Program-made: the position numbers and the translations under genes | DNA from: Escherichia coli | Lineage (GTDB): Bacteria; Pseudomonadota; Gammaproteobacteria; Enterobacterales; Enterobacteriaceae | Strand: one strand, 5' to 3' | DNA length: 64,000 nt | NCBI RefSeq assembly: GCF_030384885.1 | Contig: NZ_CP128613.1 | Part shown: positions 48,875-53,845 of the stretch, in pieces | Position numbering within the stretch: the stretch's first letter is position 1 | How the letters are laid out: the number at the start of each line of letters is the position of its first letter | The notes under the pieces: model-generated | What the model was told of the DNA's origin: nothing | Database searches by the model: none | The model's input: the letters and a program-made list of their open reading frames with translations, nothing else

Positions 48875-49534
48875 TTACAGCGGGCTTAAGGTAATTTCTA
48901 CACGGCGGTTTTGCGCCTTACCTTCTGCGGTGCTGTTGCTGGCGATTGGGTTAGCCGGGCCAAGGCCCTGAGTACGGATGCGGCTGGCGTCCACGCCCTG
49001 GGTGATCAACGCGCTGGCAACGGAATCCGCACGCTGCTGGGAGAGACGCATGTTCAGGTCGTGACCACCCGTGCTGTCGGTATAACCAATCACGTTAACC
49101 GCCGTTTTCGGATACTCTTTCAGCACCATTGCCACGCCGGTTAGGGTGTTAGCGCCTGCCGGTTTCAGGGTCGCGCTGCTGCTGTCGAAGGTTACATTGT
49201 TCGGCATATTGAGGATAATGTTATCCCCGCTGCGGGTTACGCTAACACCAGTGCCGCGCATTTTGTCACGTAGCTTCGCTTCCTGCACATCCATGTAATA
49301 ACCAACGCCGCCGCCCAGAGCTGCACCCGCTGCTGCGCCAATCAGCGCGCCTTTACCGCGATCTTTCTTCGAAGAAGAGAGCGCACCAATACCCGCGCCA
49401 ACGAGAGAGCCCAGACCTGCACCGATAGCAGATTTACCTGCTTCGCGTTCACCTGTGTAAGGGTTAGTGGTGCAGCCAGATACCGCCAGAGCGCCACTCA
49501 CTACGGCGGCAATAAGATAAACACGTTTCTTCAT
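48875..49534 (-). CDS. yiaD: OmpA-domain outer membrane lipoprotein YiaD
   Basis: 219-aa ORF, lipobox AVSGC, C-terminal OmpA-like domain. Confidence 0.9.
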   Translation of the reverse strand: MKKRVYLIAAVVSGALAVSGCTTNPYTGEREAGKSAIGAGLGSLVGAGIGALSSSKKDRGKGALIGAAAGAALGGGVGYYMDVQEAKLRDKMRGTGVSVTRSGDNIILNMPNNVTFDSSSATLKPAGANTLTGVAMVLKEYPKTAVNVIGYTDSTGGHDLNMRLSQQRADSVASALITQGVDASRIRTQGLGPANPIASNSTAEGKAQNRRVEITLSPL

Positions 49535-49686
49535 TGTTAATCCTTAATAACCTTTTTATTCTTTGCCACGGGTTCCGTGGCGGGAGATTATGCCGCGTGA
49601 ACATGAAGATTATTCCTGGGAATACTCGGAAATTTGTAAGTAATATTTAACTGCTCAATACATCTAACCTTTCAGGAGCCTTCGGT

Positions 49687-52020
49687 TTGGCCAACTCATC
49701 CTCACGATATTCCGTTCTGACTGCCGCTCACTGGGGGCCCATGCTGGTTGAAACCGACGGCGAAACCGTGCTTAGCTCGCGTGGCGCGTTAGCCACAGGA
49801 ATGGAAAACTCCTTGCAGAGCGCGGTTCGCGACCAGGTTCACAGTAATACGCGGGTACGATTTCCAATGGTGCGCAAAGGCTTTCTTGCGTCACCGGAAA
49901 ACCCGCAAGGCATTCGTGGGCAGGATGAATTTGTTCGTGTGAGTTGGGATGAGGCGCTGGAGCTTATTCACCAACAACATAAACGTATTCGTGAGGCTTA
50001 TGGTCCGGCATCGATTTTTGCTGGTTCCTACGGCTGGCGTTCAAACGGCGTGCTGCATAAGGCCTCGACATTATTACAACGCTATATGGCGCTGGCAGGC
50101 GGTTATACCGGGCATCTGGGGGATTATTCGACCGGTGCAGCACAGGCGATCATGCCGTATGTCGTGGGGGGCAGCGAAGTTTATCAACAGCAAACCAGTT
50201 GGCCGTTGGTATTGGAACATAGCGATGTCGTGGTGCTATGGAGTGCTAACCCACTCAATACGCTGAAAATTGCGTGGAATGCATCCGATGAGCAGGGGCT
50301 TTCTTACTTTTCCGCACTGCGTGACAGCGGGAAAAAGCTGATCTGCATTGATCCAATGCGATCGGAAACCGTCGATTTCTTTGGCGATAAAATGGAGTGG
50401 GTGGCACCGCACATGGGCACCGATGTTGCGCTGATGCTGGGGATCGCCCATACGCTGGTGGAAAATGGCTGGCACGACGAAGCGTTTCTGGCGCGTTGCA
50501 CCACAGGTTATGACGTCTTCGCCTCTTATTTGCTGGGCGAGAGTGACGGAATAGCGAAAAATGCCGAATGGGCGGCAGAGATTTGTGGGATTAACGCAGA
50601 GAAAATCCGCGAACTGGCGGCTATTTTTCATCAAAATACCACCATGCTGATGGCTGGCTGGGGAATGCAGCGCCAGCAGTTTGGTGAGCAAAAACACTGG
50701 ATGATCGTCACCCTGGCAGCAATGTTAGGGCAAATCGGCACGCCTGGCGGGGGCTTTGGTCTTTCTTACCATTTTGCCAATGGTGGTAACCCTACGCGCC
50801 GCGCTGCGGTGCTTTCATCTATGCAGGGCAGCTTGCCAGGTGGCACCGATGCGGTAGATAAAATCCCTGTAGCCCGTATGGTTGAAGCTCTGGAAAACCC
50901 TGGCGGTGCATACCAACACAATGGCATGAACCGTCACTTCCCGGATATTCGTTTTATCTGGTGGGCGGGCGGCGCCAACTTTACTCATCATCAGGATACC
51001 AATCGCCTGATTCGTGCCTGGCAAAAACCGGAGCTGGTGGTGATCTCCGAATGCTTCTGGACGGCAGCGGCGAAACACGCCGATATCGTCCTCCCTGCAA
51101 CCACCTCGTTTGAGCGTAATGACCTCACCATGACCGGCGATTACAGTAATCAGCATCTGGTGCCGATGAAGCAAGTGGTGCCTCCACGTGATGAAGCGCG
51201 TAATGATTTTGCTGTCTTTGCCGAGTTGAGTGAACGTTGGGAGAAGGGCGGCTATGCGCGGTTTACGGAAGGAAAAAGTGAGCTGCAATGGCTGGAAACG
51301 TTTTATAACGTTGCACGGCAGCGCGGGGCAAGCCAGCAGGTTGAATTGCCGCCATTTGCTGAGTTCTGGGAAGCCAACCAGTTAATTGAGATGCCGGAAA
51401 ACCCGGACAGCGAGCGGTTTATTCGCTTCGCCGATTTTCGCCGCGATCCGCAGGCGCATCCATTAAAAACCGCCAGCGGCAAGATTGAAATCTTCTCGCA
51501 GCGTATTGCCGATTACGCTTATCCGGATTGCCCTGGGCATCCAATGTGGCTGGAGCCGGACGAATGGCAGGGCAATGCCGAACCGGAACAGTTGCAGGTA
51601 CTTTCTGCTCATCCGGCACATCGTCTGCACAGCCAGCTGAATTACAGTTCTCTGCGCGAATTGTACGCGGTGGCAAATCGTGAGCCTGTCACCATTCATC
51701 CTGACGATGCCCAGGCGCGCGGCATACAAGATGGCGATATTGTTCGGTTGTGGAACGCACGCGGGCAAATTCTTGCCGGAGCGGTCATTAGCGAGGGAAT
51801 TAAACCTGGCGTGATTTGCATTCATGAAGGGGCATGGCCGGATCTGGATTTAACCGCTGACGGTATTTGTAAAAACGGCGCGGTGAACGTTCTGACCAAA
51901 GATCTCCCCAGCTCGCGGCTGGGGAATGGCTGTGCGGGTAATACGGCGCTGGCATGGCTGGAAAAATACAACGGTCCGGAACTGACACTTACAGCGTTTG
52001 AACCACCGGCCAGCTCATAA
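49687..52020 (+). CDS. bisC: Biotin sulfoxide reductase (molybdopterin oxidoreductase)
   Basis: 777-aa ORF beginning at TTG 49687 with AGGAG about 10 nt upstream; recognised. Confidence 0.88.
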
Positions 52021-52429
52021 TCCAGGTGGGTAGTTGGGTTTCATCCTGCCATGCGCAGTCGACAATGTGAAAACCCTGCGCATGGTAAAAATCTATCGCC
52101 GGTTGATTTTTTTGATAAACCTCCAGCATCAGATGGGGATGGCGCTGCTGCACATACTGCATTAGCGCCTTACCAATACCGCGTCTGACGGCCTTCGGTG
52201 CGACAAACATTGCAGCCAGAAATCGGCCTTCCATAATGCTGACAAAACCGAGAAGCTTACCGTCTTCTTCCCAGACCCAGTTTTGCGCGTTGGCAAGATA
52301 GGCATCCCGCACCAGCGGAATGCAATCACGCCAGTAATTCGCTTTTATAAAGGGATGCCCCCAGGTTGTACTTTCCAGCCACAATTCGAGGATCGCGGGG
52401 AGTTCTGAACGTTGCGCTTCCCGAATCAT
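51989..52429 (-). CDS. yiaC: GNAT-family N-acetyltransferase YiaC
   Basis: 146-aa ORF; 3' end overlaps the bisC 3' end by 32 bp (convergent). Confidence 0.88.
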
Positions 52430-52989
52430 GGTTTATTTCCCGGATAGCAACAGCAGCCAACCACATGATCATTCACCAGCCCACATGCCTGCATAAAGGA
52501 GTAACAGATTGTGGTACCAACAAACTTAAAACCACGCTTTTTCAGGGCTTTAGATAGAGCGTCGGAGGCGGGCGTAGATGTAGGGATTTCGCTCAACGTT
52601 GTGGCTTGTGTCACCTGTGGTTGATGATTGACAAACGACCAAACAAAGTCGGCAAACGGTTCGCCGTTCTGTTCCATTTGCAGGTACGCTCGCGCATTGC
52701 CAATAATTGCCTGAATTTTCCCGCGATGGCGGATAATCCCGGCGTCCTGTACCAGTCTTTCGACGTCCTCTTCCTGCATTGCAGCCACCTTCACCGGATC
52801 GAACTGATGAAAGCTGGCGCGATAGTTTTCGCGTTTTTTGAGGACGGTGATCCACGATAATCCAGCCTGCTGCCCTTCAAGGCAGATCATTTCGAACAGT
52901 TTTTTACTGTCAGTTTCAGGCACGCCCCATTCATTATCATGGTAGGCAATATAAAGCGGGTCCTGACTCACCCAGCCGCAACGTTCCAT
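52426..52989 (-). CDS. tag: DNA-3-methyladenine glycosylase I
   Basis: Start at ATG 52989 (MERCGWVSQDPLYIAYHDNEWG, RBS agggaa) giving 187 aa. Confidence 0.92.
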   Translation of the reverse strand: MERCGWVSQDPLYIAYHDNEWGVPETDSKKLFEMICLEGQQAGLSWITVLKKRENYRASFHQFDPVKVAAMQEEDVERLVQDAGIIRHRGKIQAIIGNARAYLQMEQNGEPFADFVWSFVNHQPQVTQATTLSEIPTSTPASDALSKALKKRGFKFVGTTICYSFMQACGLVNDHVVGCCCYPGNKP

Positions 52990-53146: not shown

Positions 53147-53845
53147 ATGATCATAAAAAAAAGCGGTGGTCGCTGACAGTTAAGCCTGCTGGCGAGCGTG
53201 GTAATCAGTGCCTTTTTTCTCAACACAGCTTACGCCTGGCAACAAGAATATATCGTTGATACGCAACCCGGACATTCCACAGAGCGCTACACCTGGGATA
53301 GCGATCATCAACCTGATTACAACGATATTCTGTCGCAACGTATTCAAAGTAGCCAAAGGGCGCTGGGACTGGAAGTCAATCTGGCGGAAGAAACCCCTGT
53401 GGATGTGACCAGCAGTATGAGTATGGGCTGGAATTTTCCTTTATATGAACAGGTTACAACCGGCCCGGTCGCGGCATTACATTACGATGGTACAACCACC
53501 TCGATGTATAACGAGTTTGGCGACAGTACTACTACACTGACTGATCCGTTATGGCATGCCAGTGTGAGTACCTTAGGCTGGCGTGTTGACTCCCGGCTTG
53601 GCGATCTCCGACCCTGGGCGCAAATCAGCTATAACCAGCAATTTGGCGAGAATATCTGGAAGGCGCAATCAGGCTTAAGCCGGATGACGGCGACAAACCA
53701 GAACGGCAACTGGCTGGATGTCACGGTAGGTGCTGATATGTTGCTCAATCAAAATATTGCCGCCTACGCTGCGTTATCTCAGGCAGAAAATACCACGAAC
53801 AATAATGACTATCTGTATACGATGGGGGTTAGTGCCAGATTTTAA
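53147..53845 (+). pseudogene. yhjY: yhjY (autotransporter beta-domain protein) with in-frame TGA at codon 10 (53174-53176); possible pseudogene or reinitiation at GTG 53198
   Basis: ATG 53147 to stop 53845 is 232 codons in one frame except the TGA; reading TGA as a sense codon restores a canonical signal peptide MIIKKSGGR-x-QLSLLASVVISAFFLNTAYA. Confidence 0.65.

Follow-up and report, generated by a model that had tools for sequence, protein, structure and literature searches.

The bisC gene of Escherichia coli raises the question of whether its translation indeed begins at a TTG codon, and of why such a weak start codon should have been kept. We analysed the gene in a window of 64,000 nucleotides of E. 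coli DNA, which represents an ordinary stretch of the chromosome (rhs-selAB-...-xyl-glyQS-yiaD-bisC-yiaC-tag-...-dpp) and shares about 98% identity with most E. coli genomes and 99.9% with that of strain 2013C-4282. A previous sequence-only reading of this DNA had let bisC start at TTG 49687 with a frame of 777 codons, preceded by AGGAG about 10 nt upstream, and had pointed out that the next in-frame ATG lies farther downstream and would shorten the protein. This assignment was borne out by the geometry of the open reading frame, the Shine-Dalgarno motif, the agreement of annotations and the conservation of the locus, which together form the basis for the TTG start. The distance from the last G of AGGAG to the T of TTG was measured as 8 nt, which is close enough to the earlier estimate and, falling within 5-9 nt, is a normal, indeed optimal, spacing for a Shine-Dalgarno motif, and a start at the next in-frame ATG (codon 19) would yield a protein of 759 amino acids. 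On these sequence data, TTG 49687 is very probably the main start of bisC (probability about 0.93). The coordinates of the gene, its start region and its convergent neighbour are given in Table 1.

Table 1. Positions of bisC, its start region, the rejected alternative starts and the convergent gene yiaC in the window.
Feature	Position	Strand	Remarks
bisC CDS	49687..52020	+	cytoplasmic molybdopterin (bis-MGD) S-oxide reductase; 777 codons plus TAA (52018-52020)
bisC TTG start codon	49687..49689	+	same codon in the annotations of K-12 and of the nearest genome; TTG in 77/81 sequences
Shine-Dalgarno motif AGGAG	49674..49678	+	8 nt 5' of the start codon; GGAG in 81/81 sequences
In-frame TAA	49648..49650	+	shuts the bisC frame upstream; also the stop of the 15-codon leader ORF 49603-49650
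ATG codon 19, rejected alternative start	49741..49743	+	759-aa version of some annotations
ATG codon 39, rejected alternative start	49801..49803	+	739-aa version, AAB18528.1
yiaC CDS (N-acetyltransferase)	51989..52429	-	convergent with bisC; stop TAA 51989-51991
bisC/yiaC tail-to-tail overlap	51989..52020	.	32 bp; identical in the K-12 annotation

From the in-frame TAA that closes the frame upstream to codon 19, TTG 49687 is the sole ATG, GTG or TTG codon, and the two CTG codons in the same stretch (49651 and 49717) both come without a Shine-Dalgarno motif. Further possible in-frame starts follow 3' of the TTG at codons 19 (ATG 49741), 28 (GTG 49768) and 39 (ATG 49801). Because AGGAG is rare in the window, with 59 sites on both strands corresponding to 4.6e-4 per position, its chance occurrence at the spacing observed before bisC is unlikely.

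The same start is used in the current annotation of the gene in E. coli K-12. In the RefSeq record of strain MG1655 (b3551; 3714061..3716394; NP_418007.3; BISC_ECOLI), bisC codes for 777 amino acids in the same frame and opens with this TTG, preceded at an unchanged distance by the identical Shine-Dalgarno motif, and the PGAP annotation of the genome nearest to the window also starts the gene at this codon. The BisC proteins of the window and of K-12 differ in 18 of 777 residues, while the start regions show a single difference in the base beside the Shine-Dalgarno motif (AGGAGC in the window, AGGAGT in K-12). An exact-sequence look-up revealed that K-12 BisC exists in three lengths in public databases. 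The version of 777 residues is that of UniProt (BISC_ECOLI) and of the RefSeq MULTISPECIES entry, a version of 759 residues starting at Met19 appears, e.g., in the annotation of K-12 DH10B and was found on 516 contigs, and a version of 739 residues starting at Met39 is represented by AAB18528.1, an early MG1655 entry. A homologue search with a 150-aa fragment, used to see how start calls vary among metagenome and MAG data, returned mostly fragments and frameshifted calls; Met19 was frequent as a start among these gene calls, e.g., in P0007 (257 members) and in the JGI and NCBI MAG calls P0016 and P0018. The TTG start of bisC is therefore already known, being the current curated choice that was adopted after earlier shorter calls, and what is new is the near constancy of this weak start over about 80 enteric species. 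With three N-termini in the databases and gene callers often choosing Met19, the comparative data presented here are of value for annotation, as they clearly favour the TTG. Literature searches for the start codon of bisC, or for TTG or UUG in connection with this gene, returned nothing relevant, and bisC goes unmentioned in the supplements of TRAINSPOTTER, INRI-seq, a Salmonella riboproteogenomics paper and the Stringer Ribo-RET preprint. Likewise, no N-terminal sequencing, N-terminomics or initiation-site ribosome profiling of bisC was found in searchable papers and supplements.

Comparing BisC N-termini across species, as the sequence-only reading had proposed, we found that conservation begins upstream of both downstream ATG codons rather than at one of them. 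The protein scored 1095.2 bits with the profile TIGR00509 (bisC_fam; cut-off 1017.55), in which positions 1-768 of 772 were covered by residues 13-775, and it contains the Pfam domains PF18364 (Molybdopterin_N, residues 12-52), PF00384 (Molybdopterin, 56-517) and PF01568 (Molydop_binding, 636-741), the first of which was matched completely over all 41 positions. The AAHWG motif at the beginning of this region occupies residues 13-17. The mature chains of the structurally solved DMSO/TMAO reductases (1EU1, 1DMS and TorZ 7L5I) begin at positions aligned to BisC residues 7-10, and in homologues with a Tat signal the alignment with BisC begins directly past the signal peptide, at their residues 33-49. 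The periplasmic enzymes DorA (1EU1/1DMS), TorZ (7L5I) and TorA (1TMO) belong to the same fold family as BisC and align with it over essentially the whole chain, but they carry a twin-arginine signal peptide of 30-45 residues, which BisC lacks. Because BisC contains just 12 residues ahead of its first conserved strand, AAHWG, and no RRxFLK motif, it is cytoplasmic. All of 12 distant full-length cytoplasmic relatives start 2-22 residues before the corresponding (S/T/A)HWG motif. Farther into the chain, the sequence GDYS(148)T of BisC was aligned to GDYS(147)T of DorA (1EU1); Ser147 of the DMSO reductase of R. sphaeroides is the Mo ligand, and the GDYST context of this serine is conserved in BisC.

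These alignments bear directly on the two shorter versions of the protein. If the real start were the ATG at codon 19, the TTG would represent nothing but the mechanical left end of an open reading frame. Many public gene calls have made this choice (DH10B, P0007, P0016, P0018), and a GGGGG run is present just 5' of the ATG; however, this run lies only 3 nt from the codon and is itself coding sequence for Trp-Gly-Pro. The 759-aa protein would lack the AAHWG strand, which all homologues retain, close and remote alike, and its PF18364 domain would be short of 7 of 41 positions. Moreover, Met19 is replaced by Ile, Val or Leu in Citrobacter and other genera that contain no ATG nearby, and the triplet-type conservation expected of a coding sequence already begins right after the TTG. 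We therefore consider codon 19 very improbable as the real start, although it may serve for some minor extra initiation in E. coli. A start at the ATG of codon 39 is still harder to believe and was practically dismissed. It has on its side that AAB18528.1 from MG1655 exactly equals the 739-aa version and that ATG is the commonest start codon, opening 53 of the 55 annotated CDS in the window, compared to one GTG (sgbU) and one TTG (bisC). On the other hand, the N-terminal domain would shrink by 27 of its 41 positions, 26 positions would be lost from the TIGR00509 match, Met39 is missing in most species including Citrobacter, no Shine-Dalgarno motif is present upstream, and this start was given up by the current versions of RefSeq and UniProt. 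Both downstream ATG codons are rejected as main starts because they would cut into the conserved protein, which leaves TTG 49687 as the preferred start.

To follow the start codon across the Enterobacteriaceae, one genome per species was scanned, yielding 80 loci from more than 25 genera with 79-96% protein identity, and each locus was anchored together with the window (81 sequences) on the invariant AAHWGP motif. All 81 sequences contained an in-frame start position behind GGAG, located 11-15 codons before His15, and GAG was invariant in the alignment. The start codon was TTG in 77 sequences, GTG in two (Leclercia), CTG in one (a MAG) and TTA in one (a draft assembly), and it was never ATG. 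Upstream in-frame stops occurred at variable distances, the nearest at 12 nt, and the upstream translations were not conserved. Conservation was highest at second codon positions right behind the TTG, whereas upstream of it the Shine-Dalgarno motif alone stood out, and all indels between the start and His15 comprised whole codons. Among 5426 complete E. coli genomes, the exact 81-nt haplotype of K-12 with TTG was found in 4145 and that of the window in 165, while none contained the K-12 haplotype with its start changed to ATG or GTG. A more distant cytoplasmic homologue starts at ATG, indicating that a TTG start is not a property of the enzyme family as such.

From these data, we infer the use of TTG 49687 by ribosomes, the efficiency of initiation there and a possible selection on the codon. 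In the proposed mechanism, AGGAG would position the 30S subunit 8 nt 5' of UUG 49687-49689, and the initiator fMet-tRNA would read this UUG as a near-cognate start, so that BisC would begin with Met. Removal of this Met is probable, as judged from the Ala residue that follows it. The product would be the full cytoplasmic biotin/methionine-S-sulfoxide reductase of 777 residues including the N-terminal AAHWG strand. The UUG should be weaker than an AUG, which the strong and invariant Shine-Dalgarno motif would partly compensate. Gene starts in E. coli consist of 83% AUG, 14% GUG and 3% UUG; relative to AUG, initiation at these three codons reaches 10-100%, and the first residue is Met (bioRxiv 10.1101/063800). 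Non-AUG starts generally tend toward stronger Shine-Dalgarno motifs (PMC5622118).

As to selection on the weak codon itself, we counted parsimony changes on a neighbour-joining tree of the 81 sequences, using as a control 69 four-fold degenerate sites at which the amino acid was invariant. If all changes were counted, the first base of the start codon had changed twice, which is below every one of the four-fold sites (4-35 changes, median 20). The fairest control is a count of transversions only, the type of substitution that leads to ATG or GTG; here, the first base had changed once, whereas the four-fold sites had a median of 10 and three of the 69 were equally static. The first base had thus changed less often than about 95% of the synonymous sites (empirical p of about 0.05), which is borderline and refers to a single site.

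Given TTG as the start, its retention in the Enterobacteriaceae may simply be a historical accident without any selection for a weak codon, and we give this explanation even odds. It is in line with the three equally static control sites and with the observation being one of a single site, with the generally slow evolution of start codons, most changes of which destroy them, and with the GTG that replaces the TTG in Leclercia without apparent harm. What an accident explains less well is that ATG is absent from all 81 sequences although the generally preferred codon is one T-to-A change away, that the first base is more static than all 69 control sites if every type of substitution is counted, and that the 5426 complete E. 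coli genomes contain no ATG or GTG variant of the K-12 haplotype. In addition, UUG starts give way to AUG or GUG genome-wide faster than the same triplets change in non-coding DNA, with UUG-to-AUG switch rates of 0.0174 vs. 0.0061, i.e., about three times faster (PMC5622118). The lack of any change from TTG to ATG, combined with the invariant GGAG and the ATG of the distant homologue, hints that selection favours a restricted rate of initiation. The near-total retention of UUG across the Enterobacteriaceae suggests that a modest rate may have been selected. The more specific proposal that selection actively keeps the UUG, paired with an invariant strong Shine-Dalgarno motif, and thereby caps or conditions the synthesis of a cofactor-costly molybdoenzyme is put forward tentatively, at somewhat short of even odds. 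If the UUG were actively maintained, a change from TTG to ATG would be deleterious. With its weak codon kept almost universally behind a strong Shine-Dalgarno motif, bisC is a further candidate for the small set of genes whose non-ATG start is possibly selected to limit expression.

The situation resembles that of lacI, the GTG start of which is also a sub-optimal start codon kept across genera of the Enterobacteriaceae (PMC11445065). In either case, the codon is just one base away from ATG, yet ATG was not seen. The two cases differ in that lacI codes for a regulator with a GTG start, whereas bisC codes for an enzyme with a TTG start. Moreover, a fitness benefit has been measured in vivo for the GTG of lacI, and the codon varies between lineages (PMC11445065), lacI being the measured precedent for the selection proposed at bisC.

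Some loci of the comparative set showed deviations of their own. The TTA start (L003:1501-1503) stems from a draft assembly labelled E. coli SCPM-O-B-8794 and would abolish normal initiation. It is shared by no complete E. coli genome, and the nearest one (CUPF09) contains TTG; the TTA is either a private null mutation or a sequencing or assembly error. In Phytobacter, one Kosakonia sp. (L021) and Salmonella diarizonae (L019, L021, L071 and L030), an extra in-frame ATG is present 18 nt or 6 codons 5' of the TTG. It is not preceded by a Shine-Dalgarno motif, and the usual motif lies inside the extension, so automatic annotation may over-extend BisC in these species. Finally, two loci (L066 and L072) have an early break in the bisC frame, Kluyvera georgiana with 630 codons and Kosakonia oryziphila with 313, and possibly represent pseudogenes or assembly errors.

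The leader of bisC contains a 15-codon ORF in the bisC frame (49603-49650; MKIIPGNTRKFVSNI followed by the stop codon) which is not annotated and whose TAA bounds the bisC ORF. Beyond Escherichia, an ATG-initiated counterpart (MKKIPGKTLKFVSNIERHNK followed by a stop codon) was found only in Citrobacter and Salmonella. A leader peptide was rejected, as the ORF lacks a Shine-Dalgarno motif, its ATG is confined to Escherichia, Citrobacter and Salmonella, and the block contains 1-nt indels elsewhere. Judging from this pattern, the ORF is probably not a gene, and the leader block at this position is more likely a DNA-level element than a peptide. The block itself, AAATTTGTAA(A/G)TAACATTGAAC, is conserved across genera and lies at 49630-49651 in the window and, in loci L005-L082, some 65-45 nt 5' of the start; it may represent the -35 region of a bisC promoter. 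We also compared it with the BirA operator bioO and observed that 15 of 20 bases agree with the left half and centre of bioO. A BirA operator in the bisC leader was rejected because the right half-site is absent and the match is at chance level (rough expectation about 0.3); no paper linking bisC to BirA was found.

In most of the species outside Escherichia (L005-L082), a short hairpin is located about 45-20 nt 5' of the bisC start and is followed by ACACCTGCA. Its stems differ between species and yet stay complementary (ACGGC/GCCGT, CAGCC/GGCTG, GGTC/GACC, GATG/CATC), and it is absent in E. coli (window 49652-49672), E. albertii and Salmonella. The folding energies are modest (median z = -1.1), and the hairpin was not recovered by RNAalifold from the MAFFT alignment of the leaders, which yielded no consensus pairs. 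A structured leader in E. coli was rejected, as the initiation region folds no better than shuffled sequences (z = -0.08). No Rfam match was obtained for window positions 49400-52600 or for 10 orthologous loci.

At the opposite end of the gene, the sequence-only reading had described an overlap of 32 bp between the 3' ends of bisC and yiaC. Its coordinates proved correct, and K-12 shows the same overlap. As in other convergent overlapping bacterial gene pairs, the two genes share their last 10-12 codons on opposite strands. The overlap comprises 32 nt in 39 sequences, including the window, and 38 nt in another 33, together accounting for 72 of 80 informative sequences (79 loci and the window). 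No convincing intrinsic terminator was detected in or near the overlap, where only one weak hairpin appeared, at chance level. This G+C-rich hairpin of 9 bp with a weak T tail (51904-51926, minus strand) is situated in the last part of bisC, some 63 nt beyond the stop of yiaC. It could end transcription of tag-yiaC, but 0.8 sites of this kind are expected by chance in the terminator scan. Just beyond the bisC stop, yiaC contains a perfect inverted repeat of 10 bp (52049-52058 and 52076-52085). The tag and yiaC genes overlap by 4 nt at 52426-52429 (ATGA), with the TGA stop of tag lying over the ATG of yiaC, an arrangement that is the usual sign of translational coupling.

A further observation concerns the gene yhjY, which codes for an outer-membrane beta-barrel protein. 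Its codon 10 (53174-53176) is TGA in the window, compared to TGG (Trp) in K-12 and in the 99.9%-identical strain 2013C-4282, and the gene is consequently cut after 9 codons, with a GTG-initiated ORF of 215 aa starting at 53198 as its remnant.
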